From: Naegleria gruberi
Lineage: Eukaryota
DNA length: 64,000 nt
Strand: one strand, 5' to 3'
Assembly: GCA_000004985.1 (NCBI GenBank)
Contig: GG738880.1
Shown here: piece after piece, positions 23,618-42,700 of the stretch
Numbering within the stretch: the stretch's first letter is position 1
How the letters are laid out: every line of letters starts with the position of its first letter
The notes under the pieces: generated by a model
Seen by the model: only the letters and a program-made list of their open reading frames with translations
The model's database searches: none
Told to the model about the DNA's origin: nothing
Program-made: the position numbers and the translations under genes

Positions 23618-24956
23618 TTAACCCTTCACACAAACAATTTGTTTAAGGGTATACAAAATATCTACAAGATCCTTTTGACTTTCCATCACTGCATCAATAT
23701 CCTTGTAAGCTTCTGGTATTTCGTCTAGAACTCCTTCGTCCTTTCTACATTCGACATCTTTGGTTTGTGCCCTTAAATCTTGAACGGTGAAGGTCTTTTT
23801 GGCTTGTCCTCGTGATAGTTTTCTTCCAGCTCCATGTGAACATGAACAATAGCTGTCTGCATTGCCCTTTCCAATAACTATATAAGATTTCTTTCCCATT
23901 GAACCTGGAATAATTCCCAACTCGCCCTTTTTTGCAGATACAGCTCCCTTACGTGTAATGTACAAATCTTCTCCAAAGTGATTTTCTAATTGAGCATAGT
24001 TATGGTGACAATTGACTGCTACGAGATCTGCTTTGAAATTTGGATCTGCCACTTGTCCTCCTCTTCTCAAAGATTTAATCACTTCCTCCATCATTATTTT
24101 TCTATTGAATTTTGCAAAGTCAGACGCCCAATTTAATGCAAACCAATATTCATCAAAATAGTTAGTTCCCTTAGTGAGATAGGCCAAATCTTGATTTCCA
24201 TTTGGCAGGTAACCATATGTTTTTAACATATCTTCCTTTGCCAGATCAATAAACACACGTCCAATCATATTTCCAACGCCTCTTGATCCAGAATGTAACA
24301 TAATCCAAACCTGGTCTGTTTCATCGAGGCAAATTTCTATAAAATGATTTCCTCCTCCCAAGGTTCCCAAGTGGTTAATATGATTTGATTCTTCAATGCT
24401 ATCTCTATAGGATTGCTTGATATCTTTAAAGTTTAATATTCTTTCAAAACCATTGTGTAGTTGAGTATCCCAAAGGTCAACAACAGAATTTGGCATATTT
24501 CCCTTTTCATGTTTTCCAAATCCGACTGGGATGACCTTCTCAATGCTATTTCTGATACTTGCGAGCGATTTCAAATCAGTGGCCTTTAAACTTGTCTTGA
24601 CTGCACACATTCCACATCCAATGTCCACTCCAACTGCTGCAGGAATAAGGGCTGTTTTTGTGGGAATAACTGTGCCCACTGTACAACCTTTGCCCATGTG
24701 AACATCGGGCATGACAGCAATGTGTCCATGAATGATTCCTTTTTAAGAATTAGATTTGCAAAACGTAAAATTGGTAAGAACACGTACCCGAATTTCTCAC
24801 TCCAATTAATTGCTTCTTGGCTTCCTCCTCGATAGGTTCCACCTTTGATGTCCAATATTTAGCTTCTGCAAAATTGAATTTTGATTGGCTTGTAGAGAAG
24901 CATCTCAATCCCCTTGTTGATTGGTTCAGAAAATTCTTTAGAAGTAGTATTGACAT
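23618..24956 (-). CDS. rtcB: RtcB RNA 3'-phosphate ligase, bacterial (E. coli) type, with N-terminal presequence-like extension, 2 exons
   Basis: Exon 1 is 24788..24956 (ATG MSILLLKNFLNQSTRGLRCFSTSQ... then AEAKYWTSKVEPIEEEAKKQLIGV). Intron 24739..24787 (GTACGT...TTAAAAAG, 49 bp, phase 1). Exon 2 is 23618..24738. Splicing gives ...RNSG|IIHGHIAVMPDVHMGKGCTVGTVIPTKTALIPAAVGVDIGCGM. Metal-site motifs NHLGTLGGGNHFIE, HSGSRGVG, NCHHNY and SCSHGAGR are present. The MPDVH(L/M)GKG...GVDIGCGM pattern is characteristic of the E. coli-type RtcB clade; eukaryotic HSPC117 has MPDAHWGYG instead. Confidence 0.8.
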
Positions 24957-30873: not shown

Positions 30874-31123
30874 GTGGCGGACTGATGTTGGGATGTATCC
30901 GAAGTAAGTGGCGGAAAAGTTAACACAGACTGAAACCAGTGGCGGTACACCAGTTTTTGCTTGGGTGATTGAATCTTATCTGGTAGTGAAAATCCGAAAA
31001 TTTTGGATTCATGTTAATTTCTGTAGTTTAGAAAGGCGCATTCACTTCTCATTGTAACCAAACTTAACTTCCCGCCAACACCAATCACATTTCACATCTT
31101 GGCGCCTTTTCTCGAACCGTTAC
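30874..31123. promoter_or_regulatory. GC-rich motif cluster in the alpha-tubulin upstream region: 3x GTGGCGG, E2F-like TTCCCGCCAA and CTTGGCGCC, Myb-like AACCGTTAC
   Basis: GTGGCGG at 30874, 30908 and 30939 (spacing about 31-34 bp). TTCCCGCCAA at 31069..31078 (reverse complement TTGGCGGGAA). TTGGCGCC at 31099..31106. ACCGTTAC at 31116..31123. All lie within 400 bp 5' of the tubulin ATG in an otherwise AT-rich spacer. Confidence 0.3.
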
Positions 31124-31246
31124 ACACAAAAAATCACATAAATCCTCCACAACCTGCCACCTTTCACACCAACAAAAAAAAAATAACATTACACTTCTCA
31201 TTATAAGAAGCTAGTATAAACTAAACTAAACTAATCCAAACTAAAG

Positions 31247-32605
31247 ATGAGAGAAATTATCAATATTCACATTGGTCAAGCCGGTATCCAAGCTGGTGAA
31301 CAAGTCTGGTCCTTGATGTGTGCCGAACATGCAATCAACCAAGATGGTACTCGTAACATTGACTCTACCAATGGCAACTCTGATTGTTCAGTTTTATTCA
31401 GTGAATCTGCTCGTGGTCGTTACGTTCCACGTAATTTGATGGTTGACTTGGAACCATCAGTTGTTGACAGTGTCAGAAATAGTTCTTTCAAGGAATTGTA
31501 TCATCCAGCTCAAATGATTACTGGTCGTGAAGATGCTGCTAATAATTTTGCACGTGGTCATTATACTGTTGGTAAAGACATGTTGGATGTGACTGTTGAC
31601 AGATTGAGAAAGATTGCTGATAATTGTACTTCATTGCAAGGATTCCAAATTTTCCATTCAGTTGGTGGTGGTACTGGTTCTGGATTTGCTTCACTTTTAG
31701 TTGAAAGACTTTCAGTTGAATTCCCAAAGAAATGTAAACTTTCGTATACAGTTTATCCATCTCCTCAATTGGCCACTTCAGTTGTTGAACCATACAATTC
31801 AGTCTTGTCAACTCATTCCTTATTAGAACACAATGATATCTCAGTTGTTTTGGACAACCAAGCCATTTACGATATTTGTAAACAACGTTTAAAGATTGAA
31901 AGAGCAAATTATCGTAATTTAAATCACGTCATTTCTCAAACAGTTTCTGCCATTACCTGCTCATTGAGATTCTCTGGATCATTGAATGTAGATATGAATG
32001 AATATCAAACTAATTTAGTTCCATATCCAAGAATTCATTTCATGTTATCTTCATTGGCTCCAATGATTTCACGTCAAGAAAATTATTATCATGATAATAA
32101 TGTTGCAGAGTTGACTTCATCTGTTTTTGAAGCTGATAATATGATGGCTAAGTGTAATCCAAGAGATGGAAAGTATATTGCTTCTTGTTTGATGTATAGA
32201 GGTGATATTGTTAATAAGGAAGTTACTGATGCTGTCAAAAATGTCAAATCAAAGGCAAATATTCAATTTGTTGATTGGTCTCCATGTGCTTTCAAGATTG
32301 GTGTCAATTCTCAAAAGCCAACTGTTTTGCCAGATTCTGAATTTGCTCAAGTTGACAGATCATGTGCCATGATTTCGAATAACACTGCCATTTCACAAGT
32401 ATTCGAAAGAATGAACGACAAGTTTGATTTACTTTATGCTAAACGTGCCTATGTCCATCACTTTGTTTCTGAAGGTATGGAAGAAGGTGAATTTGCTGAA
32501 GCTCGTGAAGATTTGGCTGCCTTGGAAAAGGATTATACTGAACTTGCTTCCAATTCAGTTGCTGAAGAAGATTCCATGTTGGATGAAGGTGAAACTTTGA
32601 ACTAA
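31247..32605 (+). CDS. Alpha-tubulin (divergent), single exon
   Basis: 452 aa. [21 protein letters not shown]...[23 protein letters not shown]..., with a C-terminal acidic tail [16 protein letters not shown]-binding motifs are conserved. Confidence 0.9.
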
Positions 32606-32992
32606 ATGTTTTTCTAACACAAATGTTGGACAAGAAATTTAATATTTAAATTAGGTTTTAAATATCAACTTGTTCAAATAATTAAAACAAATAAATTATT
32701 TAACTTATTCAATATTCACTCTCTATTATGCCTACCGATTATAGTTAAACTCGCAAGCGTAGCAAGAAAATTATTACTAAACTACTTTCAAGTGGTGGTG
32801 GATGTGTTTAAGGAGGAGATTGATATGGTCGTAGCGAAATTTCCATTCAGGGGGTGAAGTCAGATTCTGAAATTGAATTTTTAATGAGAAATGGATGCTG
32901 GTAAGACATGACACAAAATCTTTTCCAACCCAGCTTACGTGGTACCAAAGCTTTTTGTTACTTTGGGAGTATACATTTATTATGAATGTGAA

Positions 32993-33815
32993 GCGTCGAT
33001 GGTTTAGTGGTAGAATACGGCGTTGCCATCGCCGTGACCCGGGTTCAATTCATTTTGATAGTATGAATTATTGTGATTGTGTTTCAATTTGGGAATTTCA
33101 TTTCCCGTTCTCCAACTCTATGTAGGATTTTACTTTTATTAATATTAATTCTTTTTGTTCAAATTTGTGTGCGTCGACCAATTATCAAATTGTCAACATA
33201 CTAGTACATGTATTAAAATCCGTTACCCGATGGTTAATATTCAATTTGTTTATTATGTGTCAATTTCCGTTACCCGATGGTTAATGTTCTATGTTAATTT
33301 TGTAATATAATGTTTTGAACTGTTTCATCATGTAATGTGTTAATTCAAAGTTTGTGAACATCATCAATGAATAAATAATAAATTTTATTGTGATGACTCC
33401 CAATTAGGAAATTCCGTTTCCCTATACCCAATCATCAATATCTTTAATATTACATTATCAAAATTAATGTGTGAAATACATTTAAATAATAATAATTTAA
33501 AAAACATTGTATTAATTCAATTTCAAAATTGAATTCAATTTCCACATTAGGTAATTCCATAACCCGTTACCTAACTTCCAACTTTTATTTCCAACTTTCC
33601 AATATTTCCAACATTCAATGAAAGAACAACATTCAATGAAAAATTGAAGAACAATTCAACATGATGTTTCACATCATGAATTAAAAATAATGAACAGAAT
33701 TCAACGTGATGTTTCACATCATGAATAATAATAAAATACAACATTCATATTTCCATCATAAAATTAAAAGTTAAATGATTCCAAAAAAAGGAAATTTCAA
33801 TTCCCGGTCGACGCA
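32993..33815 (+). tRNA. tRNA-Gly(GCC) gene split in the T-loop by a roughly 750-bp insertion (probable pseudogene)
   Basis: The 5' part at 32993..33051 (GCGTCGATGGTTTAGTGGTAGAATACGGCGTTGCCATCGCCGTGACCCGGGTTCAATTC) folds as acceptor, D, anticodon (GCC) and the 5' side of the T-arm. The 3' part at 33804..33815 (CCGGTCGACGCA) completes the T-stem and acceptor exactly. The 8-bp TTCAATTC is present at both junctions (33044..33051 and 33796..33803). Confidence 0.6.
33052..33803. mobile_element. Non-coding insertion within tRNA-Gly flanked by 8-bp direct duplication TTCAATTC; internally repetitive (non-autonomous element, hAT-like MITE?)
   Basis: No ORF. Repeated about 20-bp subunits GGRAATTYCNTTNCCCGTT near 33098, 33409, 33549 and 33789. 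Tandem copies of TCCGTTACCCGATGGTTAAT (33219 and 33266). Two copies of a 26-bp unit containing the perfect palindrome CATGATG-TTTCA-CATCATG (about 33655..33730). A degenerate inverted copy of the tRNA 3' end (TGCGTCGACCAATTATCAA) sits at about 33170..33190. Confidence 0.4.
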
Positions 33816-34094
33816 AGAAAGTTTTTAAGTTCTCCCTTTTTTGTTTATTATTTTATATCACAATAAGTAGACATAGTTCTCTACAGTATTCTGAAAAATT
33901 ACCAGTTGACTTATATTCAGTGAGATAATCAACGCAGTTTTGACTCCATAGCAAACCTTTAGACTGATATTATTGCTGCTCTTGAGTTCAATTAGTTCTC
34001 CCACATCAACAAGCCAAATAATCCTTATCCTAATTGTATGAACTTGATAAAATATTAAACTTGAAATTGACAAAAAATCTCAAAAATACTTTAT

Positions 34095-37796: not shown

Positions 37797-39716
37797 ATGT
37801 CTTCTCATCCTCAATCAGAATCTTCATCAACAAGGATTGAAGAAGAACATTGTGACAATTTAAAGATGGAGGAGTTGGATGTCGCTGTTTTAAAAAAGGT
37901 TAATTCAGTTGAGGAAGTTGTAGGGTGGAAACAAATCTCATCGGAGGATGTAATCTTGAGAAGAATTCTCAGTTTTTGTAGTTTCCAAGAACAATCATCA
38001 ATGGAACTTGTCAACAAACAATGGAGGAAGTGTGTCAATGTTGAGGGGTTTGTATTGGAAAATAATAAGAAGAATATTGAAAAATTCGATTCGGAATTAT
38101 TTCCAAAACTCTTAGCAAGACATGGCTCAAACCTGAAATCGTTCAAAGTCACAGCTTCTTACTGGGAACAAAAGAATACAAAATTGATAACACCCCAAAT
38201 ACTTGTGCAGCTGTCTAAATATTGCCCAGATCTTGAGGAGCTTCATATTCCAATGTGTCACAATCTTACAGAATCTGATATCAATCCATTGAGAGGACTG
38301 ACCAAGTTGAACAAACTTGAGAAATTGGATTTGAGTGGATGTAACCTCACTGATGATCATTTGAAGAGTCTGACTGGTCTGAGAAATATCAGGGAACTAA
38401 ACTTGAGCATAAATCGATATGTGTCAGACTTGGGAATCAAGTATCTTTTCCAAGCTTCTGATAGTCTTATTGGAAGTAAGATTGAAGCTTTGGATTTGAG
38501 TTTTACTTCAGTCTCTGACAATTCTCTTCTCTGCCTTAGATCTTTGACCAACCTTAAACAATTGCACTTGATGCAGTCCTCCATTTCTCCGAAATGTCTT
38601 TCCCAACTTTTAACCTCCGAGGGTGGCCCAACAATTGAGAAATTGAATCTCCTCAATTGCACCAACATTACCTCCTTGAACTTTTTAAAAAATTATTGTA
38701 AATTACGAGCACTTATGGTTTCCTTTTCTCAAAAGGACCAAAGATCAATCAATGATGATATTGACTTTATTGAAAAACAAACTTCCCTGAAAGAATTAGT
38801 TCTAGTTGAGGTAAATTTACTAAACTCTCCACTATTGGAAGCTATTTCAAAACTGTCACAACTTGATACACTCAGTTTGAGATGTAAGAGAATTGAACTC
38901 AAGAGCAAGCAACTTCCAGACCTCCTTTCCAAATTGACAAACCTCAAAAAACTTGATATTTTATGCGAACAAGTGGATCCTATTGAAGAAGGAATTTTGG
39001 ATATCATTTCTCGTATTCCTGAATTAGAAGCTGTTTCAGTACAGTGCCACAGAAGGGCAAAGGCCATTAACTTGTTAGATGAAATTTTAGGCAAGCTATC
39101 TCTCTCAAAAATGGGCCACGCCCTTAAACACTTCTCAGTTCAAGTTCCTGGATATACTCTTGGCGAGTCTGGTTTCAGATTCCTCTCCAAATGTTCAAAT
39201 CTCGAAGCATTGGATGCTCCAATAGGCGATAATATTAGAGTTTCTGCAGAGACTCGTTTCAACAATCTTAAATCACTTCAAATTCAACAAGTTACGCCTT
39301 CCAAAGCAATCTCTCAGTCAACATTCGATTCTCTTATCAAAAGTACCAATGGAAAGCTAGAAAAATTAGTAGTCAAATCTGGAAAAGGCCTTTTATCAAT
39401 CATTGATAGTCTTGCCATCAGTTCCCAACAATTGCAAGACTTGGAGCTAGATCTCGAGATTATGAATGGCAAGGATAATTTATGTTGCAGTCTCGATGCT
39501 TCCTTGACCTCTTTAACAAAAATGTTAAATCTTGCCAGACTTTCCCTCACAGGGTGTGACAAGTATTGGTCTATTAACAAGTCAATTGTACCTTTGGCTA
39601 GAAATTTGAATTACCTTACTGAGTTGGCCCTTCCATCAGCAAAGATTTCCTCCTCTTCACCTCTTCTTTTCGAACGTCTCTTCCCCCAAACCACCATCCA
39701 ACAATCCTCTCAATAA
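37797..39716 (+). CDS. F-box / leucine-rich-repeat protein (FBXL-like)
   Basis: 639 aa. N-terminal F-box-like motif (SSEDVILRRILSFCSFQEQSSMELVNKQWRKCV) followed by multiple LxxLxLxxC/N LRRs (LEKLDLSGCNLTDDHLKSLTGL, LNLLNCTNITSLNFL, ...). Confidence 0.6.
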   Translation: MSSHPQSESSSTRIEEEHCDNLKMEELDVAVLKKVNSVEEVVGWKQISSEDVILRRILSFCSFQEQSSMELVNKQWRKCVNVEGFVLENNKKNIEKFDSELFPKLLARHGSNLKSFKVTASYWEQKNTKLITPQILVQLSKYCPDLEELHIPMCHNLTESDINPLRGLTKLNKLEKLDLSGCNLTDDHLKSLTGLRNIRELNLSINRYVSDLGIKYLFQASDSLIGSKIEALDLSFTSVSDNSLLCLRSLTNLKQLHLMQSSISPKCLSQLLTSEGGPTIEKLNLLNCTNITSLNFLKNYCKLRALMVSFSQKDQRSINDDIDFIEKQTSLKELVLVEVNLLNSPLLEAISKLSQLDTLSLRCKRIELKSKQLPDLLSKLTNLKKLDILCEQVDPIEEGILDIISRIPELEAVSVQCHRRAKAINLLDEILGKLSLSKMGHALKHFSVQVPGYTLGESGFRFLSKCSNLEALDAPIGDNIRVSAETRFNNLKSLQIQQVTPSKAISQSTFDSLIKSTNGKLEKLVVKSGKGLLSIIDSLAISSQQLQDLELDLEIMNGKDNLCCSLDASLTSLTKMLNLARLSLTGCDKYWSINKSIVPLARNLNYLTELALPSAKISSSSPLLFERLFPQTTIQQSSQ

Positions 39717-39744
39717 ATTAAGTTATTTATTCTTCATTGGAATA

Positions 39745-42700
39745 TTATTCTTGAATTCGGGTCGAATCCCATCTCTTCAAGAATAGGACGTTAAGCTTTG
39801 ATGCATTGAGATTGTACTTCTTCATGACATTGACTCTAACCTTATCAAATACAAATTGATTTGTAATATCAAAGAAGGATCTATCATATGATTCTGGATC
39901 AATGACAAATACTCTACGGTCTCCATAAAAGTGTGAATTGGCATCTACCAAATCTTGGAACCAAGGAGATTTATCAGCATGTAAACAACTGTAAACTGGC
40001 TCTGAACTAGTCTTGAATTGGAAGTCACACAAGATATGTTCTCCATTGTGGTGAGCATAACCGAACACCACCAATAATACATAGTCTTTGAAAATAGATC
40101 TGGCAGCAAAGCAAAATTGGAACATTGAGTCATCTTGTTTCACCTTGGTGGCTTCATCCAATTGTTGAATTTCACAAAAATGTAAACCTGACATTAATTG
40201 TGAAATGAATTCCTTAGCTTTGACAATTGTTGATTTGTTCTTACCAGTTCCTTCAATCTTTGGAATAGCCATTTTAAGGTGGAAAGAAGACTCGAAATTT
40301 TCCCACAATGTCAAAAAGTTTTCATGAAGTAAATTAATTGGCTTTGTGAGAACGTGAGCCATTTTGATCTTGAATGGTTGGCATCTAATTGTTACAAGTC
40401 CTTCTTGCTTGTTGCCTTCATCCAAAAGATCAATGGTTCCTGAGGACTTGAGATGTGTACATTGTATAATAATATTAAAACAATAGTGTCCAAGTTCTGA
40501 CATTGTAAATTCCAAATCAAATTCATAGGATTGATTTACAGACAAGTCACCAATATTACTTGATGCTTGTTGAGTCTTTTCAAAGAGAGTAAGTGGACCT
40601 TCGAGGCCAACTTCGGCTGTTGTTTTGAAAATATCACATGGTGAATTATTATGTACCTTAACGTGGAGGAATACAGTATATGAGTCAGGCATAACAGAGT
40701 AGGAAGCTGTTACACAGATAGGATCACTTGGTTGGGAGATAATTACAGAGTGGAACTTGGATTCAATGTTAGTTTGTCTAATCTTTGTATTGGCTGAGGT
40801 GGCTGTCAAGAGTTGTTTACCCTTCTTGAGTTGGTAGAGATCTTGTTCGTGCAAATTTGAAATAATAGAGTTGAGTTGTTGAATGCCTTCAATGTAGGAG
40901 GTGAGAATTCTTTCATCTTCTTCCGAGTAGTATGACTTGAAGATTGGGTGATCCTTGTTAAATACCTTACCATAAATAAGTTCAATATCTGACTTGGAAG
41001 CATTATCTCTTGTTATATTGTACTTCATAGCATAATCAACTTTCAATAAAGTTTTTCTGATCAAATCGGCAATATCATCCCTAGTATCGAGTTGTTTCTC
41101 CATCAACATTTTCAAATATTCAAAAGTATCTCTAAGTTTTGGAGTAAATCTCAAACAAACACTGAGTAAACAATAGAGGAGAGTTTCAATCTTTTCCTTA
41201 CTGGACATTCCACCAGAGTTTTTAAGAGTTGAAGAAATCATAAATCTGGTATGGTCAAATACCAAATCACCACTTTCTCTTCCAGCAGCTTGTTTTTGTA
41301 ATTCAACATAATTACTAAGAATACACATGGACATGACTTCAGCAAATTCAGTCTTCATCTTGAGAATGATATCCAAACACTTGTTCAAAATCTTTTGAAT
41401 CTTCTTTCTTTGATCTTCATTTGTATTGAATGATGTGTAGGATTCTCCACACAAATCTGTCAAAACGAGGGCGAACTCTGAAATACTTGCAATTAACCCA
41501 TTAGAGTCTTTCCACGTGAGAGAATTCATTGCAAATTCACAAATGCCAATTCCAACATCCAACCAAGCATGAATGAGTGAATAATCAATGGCAGAGTCTG
41601 TATTCTTTTCAACATTATTGTCATTCTTTGGTGTAAATGGCTTTTGAGTCAAGTATTCACGACACAAACAGAAGAGAAGTTCATTTCTGATTTGTTCTTC
41701 AAATTGTGATTCTGGAACAGTTACAATCTTGGAAATGAACCCTTCTCTCAAGAAGAGGTCAATTTCAACAGGTTCATTCAATTGATCTAAAAGTTTGAGG
41801 AAGTGTTGTTTTGTTCTTGTGTTAATACTGCATTGAATAAGAGTTCTGACTACACTTGATAATATGTACATTCTATTTACGTTGTCACTAACTTTCAAAA
41901 TATGTTCCACAAGTTTCACACAAACAGTATACTTATCACGAACAGTATTTAAAACTGAACAAATATCTTTCATAAGATCATCATAGAAGAAGGATGATTC
42001 TTCTCTGTATAAAAGTCCAAGATAGGCATTTGTTGCATCATCAATTAAATTATTAGTACAAGCTGTCAAATCGCTTGTCATTGAACTATCCATAGCAGTT
42101 AATAAGATACAGTGTGCTGTTTCCAAAACTGTGGCACATTCAACACTTTGAAGCATTGGTCTCAAAACATTTGTTACACTAATCATGACTATTTTCACAA
42201 TAATAATTATAATTACACTATTGTCAAAACCTACCATTATCAAAGGATGAATTGGAACGATCCAATAATTGTTGATGTGAATATTCGTCTTGTAAATATA
42301 ATGAAATGAAAGTAATTGGTCTCAAGGCAGGGTATCTTCTTCTCACATCCATACACTTGAGTCTTGACAAGAGGATGGTAAAATGTGGCTTCATTGCAGC
42401 AATCCATTGCATACTTTCCTTGGTGACAGAAATTGGCAAAGATTCCGCATGAAGATGACGAGCACAATCTCCACAAATAAATTCTCTCAACTAAATTCCA
42501 CACACACCCAATATTATTATCATCATCATCACAACAATATAATAAACCTACCACTTCAAATCCAACAAATGCAATTTCTTGATTATCATCTTTAATAGAT
42601 TTAATCACCCAATCAGAGAAATACTTTGCTGTTGATGATTCACTTGTATTTTGTTGGAAAGCTGTTGATCGTAAAGTCTCGGATTGTCTCAACGAAATTG

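Follow-up and report, generated by a model that had tools for sequence, protein, structure and literature searches.

A 744-bp insertion with an 8-bp target-site duplication in the T-loop of a tRNA-Gly(GCC) gene of Naegleria gruberi

Comparison of a filled site with its empty orthologue shows that 744 bp of AT-rich, non-coding DNA entered the T-loop of a previously functional tRNA-Gly(GCC) gene in the lineage of Naegleria gruberi NEG-M, with duplication of 8 bp. The gene lies in a 64-kb stretch of DNA, called here the window (G+C ~34%). An α-tubulin ORF 390 bp upstream of the tRNA matches N. gruberi XP_002675064.1 exactly and the ORF downstream of the locus is 100% identical to NAEGRDRAFT_80454; judged by these two identities, the locus is nuclear DNA of N. 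gruberi NEG-M (Heterolobosea). The first-pass annotation had set the insertion beside the tRNA-targeting elements of dictyostelids; as the host is Naegleria and no dictyostelid, that comparison falls away.

The split gene and its orthologous site

The 5' fragment of the gene (GCGTCGATGGTTTAGTGGTAGAATACGGCGTTGCCATCGCCGTGACCCGGGTTCAATTC) holds the acceptor 5' strand, the D arm, the anticodon arm, the variable loop, the T-stem 5' strand and most of the T-loop, while the T-stem 3' strand, the acceptor 3' strand and the discriminator A lie in the 3' fragment (Table 1). Both promoter boxes fall in the 5' fragment, the A box whole and the B box with 10/11 of its positions (GGTTCAATTCa). The octamer TTCAATTC stands at the two junctions as a direct and perfect repeat, and both junctions are clean, with no deletion and no filler. 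When the halves are joined, ARAGORN returns a clean 71-nt cloverleaf, tRNA-Gly(gcc); by our own calculation, the probability that the 12 bases needed to finish the tRNA exactly should turn up within 1 kb by chance is ~6e-5. ARAGORN also places a tRNA on the unjoined locus (32992-33063), but only with acceptor and T stems that are forced and do not pair. On the Rfam tRNA model (RF00005) the split locus (32993-33063) reaches 21.2 bits, below the gathering threshold of 29 bits, and at that threshold it goes unreported; the tRNA-Asn of the window scores 67.9 bits. The original Pol III terminator begins 6 nt past the 3' fragment, the same arrangement as at the other tRNA genes examined.

Table 1. 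Features of the interrupted tRNA-Gly(GCC) locus, in window coordinates. L020 and L034 are the metagenome contigs described in the text.
Feature	Position	Strand	Remarks
tRNA-Gly(GCC) 5' fragment, nt 1-59	32993-33051	+	identical to L020 207-265
Left TSD copy, 8 bp, TTCAATTC (tRNA nt 52-59)	33044-33051		
Insert, 744 bp	33052-33795		absent from orthologue L034
First T4 run in the insert	33053-33056	+	next T5 run at 33152-33156
GGGAATTTCATTTCCCGTTC, interior copy of right-junction GGAAATTTCAATTCCCGGTC, 17/20	33091-33110	+	0/1000 shuffles reach 17/20
Degenerate inverted copy of tRNA 3' end and trailer	33161-33188	-	TGCGTCGACC = reverse complement of GGTCGACGCA
Two 38-nt repeat copies	33208-33292	+	33208-33245 and 33255-33292
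Short tandem repeats	33576-33641	+	TTCCAAC(T/A)TT ~4 times; CAACATTCAATGAAA twice
Tandem unit of ~45 bp, two copies	33653-33726	+	each with hairpin CATGATGTttcACATCATG
Right TSD copy, 8 bp, TTCAATTC	33796-33803		
tRNA-Gly(GCC) 3' fragment, nt 60-71, CCGGTCGACGCA	33804-33815	+	identical to L020 and L034
T5 run, original Pol III terminator of the tRNA gene	33822-33826	+	conserved in L034

In the JGI metagenomes, CCGTGACCCGGGTTCAATTC led to a single contig of Naegleria type (L020). The tRNA-Gly(GCC) gene on this contig is intact, has a T5 terminator of its own and agrees with the joined halves at 71 of 71 positions; it scores 66.9 bits on the Rfam model against the 21.2 of the split locus. Coordinates, ARAGORN and this intact gene confirm the earlier division of a 71-nt gene into halves of 59 and 12 nt. 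The point of insertion after nt 59 also stands, but the size first given, 752 bp, does not: that figure counts the insert together with one copy of TTCAATTC.

The orthologous site was reached via the 90% cluster of the tubulin, on an ENA metagenome contig of 2,579 bp (L034) whose tubulin is identical to that of NEG-M at 451 of 452 aa. Positions 30968-33020 of the window align to 29-2070 of this contig at 95%, and the alignment picks up again at 33796, which corresponds to 2072. The T-loop of the contig reads GGGTTCAATTCCCGG, with a single TTCAATTC and no insert; leader, tRNA 3' end, trailer and T5 are all conserved. The pair of filled and empty sites thus identifies 744 bp plus one octamer as an insertion with an 8-bp target-site duplication (TSD), in agreement with the first-pass annotation, which had argued for an insertion rather than an intron. 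No tRNA was found at the corresponding place in N. fowleri (L001) or in the more distant relatives L033 and L035-L037. Only L034 is close enough for informative synteny.

The L034 gene carries a lesion of its own: the anticodon arm has lost 22 nt between CGG microhomologies, and by its sequence this copy is also dead, by an independent route. To read L034 as an excision footprint instead of an empty site is less likely, since a footprint would need a 31-nt one-sided deletion and one added base, whereas a simple 22-nt deletion between the microhomologies, in a site never occupied, is more economical. Over the tRNA positions common to the window and L034 there are 0/49 substitutions, against 23/354 (6.5%) in the upstream spacer (P ~0.04 if neutral). 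Given this identity and the perfect TSD, both lesions seem young compared with the separation of the two lineages; a further source of the 0/49 identity could be concerted evolution among tRNA copies. The best reading of the two sites is a recent insertion that is specific to the N. gruberi NEG-M lineage.

Make-up of the insert

The G+C content of the insert is 25%, compared with 20-36% in the neighbouring spacers sampled. It contains no ORF longer than 57 aa and, besides the host tRNA, no Rfam match at E<=1. On the tRNA strand there are eight runs of at least four T, the first of them 2 nt past the left junction. The A/T skew inverts mid-insert, from a T-rich left half to an A-rich right half; A is abundant in the last third, and an A7 run stands there at 12 nt from the right end. 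A likeness of this skew pattern to divergent promoter regions was compared and the idea dropped. The termini read ATTTTGATAG... and ...AAAGGAAAT and share an inverted match of 4 bp, ATTT...AAAT, which has a chance of ~0.009 from composition (own calculation, post hoc). Alignment of the first 30, 60 and 100 nt with the reverse-complemented last 30, 60 and 100 nt reveals no terminal inverted repeat (TIR; P 0.50, 0.74 and 0.25 against shuffles). There is no significant subterminal inverted repeat within the insert, no fold-back (DNA fold z -0.91) and no long inverted or direct similarity between its two halves. A poly(A) or microsatellite tail is absent at both ends (right ...CCAAAAAAAGGAAAT; left, as the reverse complement, ...ACTATCAAAAT).

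The description of the insert as non-coding DNA built of short repeats holds. Its two 38-nt copies are 84% identical, start 47 nt apart and each contain the exact 20-mer TCCGTTACCCGATGGTTAAT, which occurs just twice, as had been noted; a weak third copy lies at 33402-33439. The fourfold GGRAATTYC motif was also recovered, as GGRAATTYC..CCC in three interior copies and at the right junction itself. The hairpin CATGATGTttcACATCATG lies at 33660-33678 and 33705-33723. All repeated motifs have one orientation and, within the window, are confined to the insert. The repeated CCGTT(A/T)CCC and GGRAATTYC motifs are candidate protein-binding sites.

Parts of the insert resemble the target. The right-junction 20-mer GGAAATTTCAATTCCCGGTC consists of 6 nt of insert, the TSD and 6 nt of tRNA, and the interior copy in Table 1 was judged against dinucleotide shuffles; weaker copies are found at 33407-33426 and 33550-33569. 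The tRNA-only part of the 20-mer matches the interior at 12/14 (P 0.014). The degenerate inverted copy of the tRNA 3' end that the first-pass annotation had seen does exist, matching at 15/19 without gaps over 33161-33179 (P 0.004 against shuffles) and at 14/20 (P 0.014). As the acceptor stem is self-complementary, a reading of this segment as leader and tRNA 5' end in direct orientation (TGTGxGCGTCGA) is just as good. Local alignment of the whole tRNA to the insert is not significant (P 0.09); significance is limited to the 3'-end and junction matches. We take these target-like matches to be genuine: earlier targets may have left them behind in the insert, or they may be recognition sites similar to the target.

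A second copy of the insert was found by blastn neither in the window nor in 196 kb of Naegleria and other loci. The 20-mer TCCGTTACCCGATGGTTAAT has no exact match in the JGI metagenomes, IMG/VR or the GTDB genomes, and the insert has no blastn match in plasmid and phage collections; the N. gruberi genome is not among any of these. Its six-frame ORF pieces, concatenated, match none of 5.8 billion proteins. A 19-mer of the hairpin repeat has one IMG/VR match of 26 nt, in a giant-virus MAG, which was rejected as a relative because the similarity stops there and a match of that length is roughly to be expected by chance. The larger ORFs of the window that were scanned contain no transposase domain. 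A local origin of the insert was likewise discarded, there being no similarity to the surrounding 64 kb. Traits of the locus that are mobile-element-like comprise the clean 8-bp TSD, foreignness to the 64 kb, motifs restricted to the insert, the 17/20 copy of the junction, the ATTT...AAAT ends and the inversion of skew.

Origin of the inserted DNA

The duplication is clean and neither flank has lost a base, which favours an enzyme that makes staggered cuts and joins foreign 3' ends over capture of DNA by end-joining. For integration, the two strands would have been cut 8 bp apart and the single-stranded gaps then filled in. An 8-bp stagger occurs in hAT, P, some MULEs and a few others, and elements without TIRs occur in MULEs and Dada. 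On the leading reading the insert would belong to an unclassified repeat family of N. gruberi as a non-autonomous mobile element, and a DDE-type transposase with an 8-bp stagger and no need for long TIRs would have moved it in trans; hAT-like, non-TIR MULE-like or Dada-like elements are possible models for such a transposase. A non-autonomous DNA element mobilised by a DDE-type transposase is our tentative choice, and we place it somewhat short of probable. Repeats make up ~5% of the N. gruberi genome (PMC6125883); they are mostly unclassified, with a small fraction assignable to known TEs (PMC12344493). Against a DDE element stand the lack of a second copy in the window, in the 196 kb of loci and in the collections without the N. 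gruberi genome, and the lack of a significant TIR, of fold-back and of a transposase gene among the window ORFs scanned. The motifs are moreover unidirectional, whereas classical hAT and CACTA subterminal regions have both orientations at both ends, and the length of a TSD cannot by itself separate DDE transposition from target-primed reverse transcription.

That same length had been the sole ground on which the insertion was first assigned to hAT or P, the classical form of which would be a MITE: a short, TIR-bearing, non-autonomous element integrated with an 8-bp TSD by a hAT or P transposase. The insert is like hAT-family MITEs in its 8-bp TSD and in being short, non-coding and AT-rich with short repeated internal motifs, and CCGTTT and CCGTTA (reverse complement AAACGG and TAACGG) presumably recall the subterminal hexamers of Ac. 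It is unlike them in lacking TIRs (typically ~10-25 bp), YARNG termini and fold-back: no TIR extends beyond 4 bp (P 0.25-0.74 for the end alignments), the termini ATTTTG.../...GGAAAT misfit the hAT ends and the fold is not hairpin-like (z -0.9). At this single site, TTCAATTC half fits the hAT preference nTnnnnAn, with the T at position 2 but T, not A, at position 7. By generic MITE criteria, too, we found no TIR, no hairpin fold (z -0.91) and no further copy in the 64 kb and 196 kb. We do not favour the hAT/P assignment, and a MITE of this kind appears distinctly unlikely. The absence of TIRs and ORFs, the A-rich last third and the A7 run near the right end would suit a 5'-truncated non-LTR retrotransposon or a SINE-like retroposon integrated by target-primed reverse transcription, for which the length of the TSD would be incidental; only a non-coding, 3' UTR-like part would then have been copied. 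R2, Utopia and Tx1-type non-LTR retrotransposons use redundant RNA genes as safe havens, and their truncated copies are, like the insert, non-coding and without TIRs; the insert differs from them in having no RT-related sequence or tail and in being known from one site. Multicopy RNA genes are known to harbour site-specific LINEs (PMC3706591; PMC4640811). A retroposon is a serious rival but nevertheless unlikely, given that neither end has a poly(A) or microsatellite tail, that the same strand is rich in T over its left half, something uncommon on the sense strand of a LINE, and that there is no tRNA-, 5S- or 7SL-like head in Rfam and no protein match to the six-frame ORFs. TRE5, TRE3 and DGLT-A of Dictyostelium are retroelements whose insertions keep a fixed distance to tRNA genes, on the upstream or the downstream side, and do not fall inside them; the insert would resemble these as a tRNA-gene-associated mobile element in an amoeboid protist, and is unlike them in lying inside the tRNA gene and in a host, Naegleria, from a different eukaryotic supergroup.

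The target-like interior sequences bear on an element that homes to the T-loop of tRNA-Gly, either Dada-like and without TIRs or mobilised by a site-specific recombinase with TTCAATTC as crossover core. Both the copies of the right junction and T arm (17/20; 12/14) and the fragment resembling the tRNA 3' end (P 0.004) look as if earlier targets or a target-like site had been carried along. In the sections on its targets, the description of Dada (Kojima & Jurka 2013, PMC3706591) places these elements, which lack TIRs, inside multicopy small-RNA genes, namely tRNA and snRNA genes, tRNA-Gly of Perkinsus included, with short TSDs of 6-7 bp that can look like 8 bp; the same source reinterprets an apparent 8-bp TSD of Dada-U1 and Dada-tIA as 6 bp and mentions non-autonomous, internally deleted derivatives. 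The targets it reports are, however, the anticodon region or the A box and not the T-loop, and Naegleria is absent from the Dada hosts in its Table 1 (PMC3706591). The target-like sequences of the insert sit at non-matching distances, and no subterminal inverted repeat was detected that has its mirror image in the target equally far off, a feature of Dada-U6 and Dada-U1. A single insertion is known, and with tRNA genes occupying ~0.2% of the window, one hit among many insertions needs no targeting. Prokaryotic integrases also use the symmetric T arm or 3' end of tRNA genes as their site and leave a short identical core at both junctions, but the DNA they integrate brings a replacement tRNA 3' end that keeps the gene intact; here the repeat is 8 bp, the tRNA is restored at neither junction and the gene is destroyed. 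We give a homing element a slim chance, and it would be a long shot that the insert is a non-autonomous member of an undescribed, TIR-less DNA-transposon family of Heterolobosea, made T-loop-specific by target-like internal motifs that recognise the T arm. Non-mobile filler DNA (from the rDNA plasmid, the mitochondrion or elsewhere in the genome), captured when a double-strand break in the tRNA gene was mended, would account for an insert that is single-copy in all sequence searched (the N. gruberi genome not among it) and has no transposon hallmarks of ORF, TIR or fold. End-joining, however, usually leaves microhomology, small deletions or filler, in place of which we see a clean 8-bp duplication and two intact halves; the insert has no similarity to the surrounding 64 kb, and its lack of ORFs speaks against gene-dense mtDNA, so that capture has a very slim chance. 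Archaeal and red-algal tRNAs can have introns elsewhere than at 37/38, and a non-canonical T-loop intron, of BHB type or of group I/II, was considered together with two unrelated tRNA remnants. An intron of 744 nt would have its eight T runs, starting 2 nt past the junction, stop Pol III; Rfam finds no group I/II or other family at E<=1, none of the nine possible 3' boundaries (0/9) ends in the G that a group I intron requires, and the insert is absent from L034. The Rfam null, the T runs and the empty orthologue exclude an intron of any kind. The possibility of unrelated halves, which the first-pass annotation had raised, was checked as well: with an overlap of exactly 8 nt, the two halves together reproduce a single intact gene at 71/71. 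The probability of either is negligible.

Fate of the gene and wider bearing

The tRNA-Gly(GCC) gene of the window is dead, as neither its T stem nor its acceptor stem can form. By the logic of Pol III promoters, the retained A box and near-intact B box could recruit TFIIIC. Pol III may thus still start from the 5' fragment; such a transcript would stop at the first T4 run of the insert or at the T5 run that follows it (Table 1) and would be without the 3' acceptor strand. The landing of the insert in a tRNA gene was probably a tolerated chance and not targeting. It could be tolerated because tRNA-Gly copies are redundant, with an intact identical copy on L020 and an orthologue that was independently broken in the sister strain.

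The event is of a known and routine kind, the knockout by mobile DNA of one redundant tRNA gene, and would gain modest interest only if copies of the element turned out to be specific to tRNA T-loops genome-wide. It is a record of recent insertional activity in the genome of N. gruberi, whose repeats are few and for the most part unclassified, and the pair of filled and empty sites fixes the exact ends of the inserted DNA. Should other copies share the T-loop position, target-specific DNA transposition into tRNA genes would extend to Discoba, and a T-loop-specific element would be a compact one of known ends, suited to work on the way in which a transposase recognises a tRNA gene. If Dada-like targeting of the T-loop is true, it would represent a safe-haven strategy so far unreported from this supergroup and from this position of a tRNA.

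Two inactivations of one tRNA-Gly(GCC) copy

The split tRNA-Gly(GCC) has its ortholog on L034, a metagenome contig from a near-identical Naegleria (a sister strain), where the gene is free of the insert. That ortholog instead has lost its anticodon arm through a deletion of its own, 22 nt long and bounded by CGG microhomologies, and the NEG-M insertion site lies 1-4 nt from the right edge of this deletion. As NEG-M carries the insert and L034 a separate anticodon-arm deletion, the same tRNA-Gly(GCC) copy has been inactivated twice, independently, in sister lineages. The spacers flanking it turn over fast: between well-conserved flanks one segment has been replaced by unrelated sequence, and two indels separate window and contig, one of 33 nt and one of 23 nt in L034.

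Within the insert, four segments resemble its own right junction, the T arm and the inverted tRNA 3' end. Matches of these kinds are above those in shuffles; the segments could be old targets carried along, or target-like putative binding sites.

Features of the locus and their counterparts
Feature	Window	Strand	Counterpart	Detail
RtcB tRNA-splicing ligase gene	23621-24712	-		Pfam PF01139, E 7.8e-119
33-nt indel	~32793-32825
Truncated tRNA-Gly	32992-33063			72 nt, ARAGORN
Split tRNA-Gly(GCC)	32993-33815		L034 2043-2091
Target-like segments	33091-33110, 33161-33188, 33407-33426, 33550-33569
Replaced spacer	33950-34036 (87 bp)		L034 2241-2472 (232 bp)
Inverted block	37797-42243		N. fowleri L001 7655-13282	832-aa ORF, 84% identical; LRR protein, 48%

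Genomic surroundings

Relative to N. fowleri (contig L001), N. gruberi has a downstream block in the opposite orientation. Only in N. gruberi do the tRNA-Gly and the ORF NAEGRDRAFT_80454 stand between the alpha-tubulin gene and this block, which places a rearrangement breakpoint in or near the tRNA-bearing spacer. The RtcB gene lies 8 kb away from the split tRNA, a proximity that we take as coincidence.

A separate observation concerns 28 metagenome contigs (L003-L031 without L020; JGI samples Ga0224501 and Ga0224511) that have in common the 20-mer CCGTGACCCGGGTTCAATTC and a conserved sequence downstream of it (...GTATTTCAAGGGATTTTTCCCTGGCTGATC). The 20-mer sits within a repeat that looks like a high-copy, tRNA-derived, SINE-like element and has no relation to Naegleria.

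Annotation of the truncated gene

ARAGORN calls a tRNA-Gly from the truncated gene, tolerating acceptor and T stems that are mostly unpaired, whereas its Rfam score is below threshold. This pseudogene could therefore enter automatic annotation as a functional tRNA.
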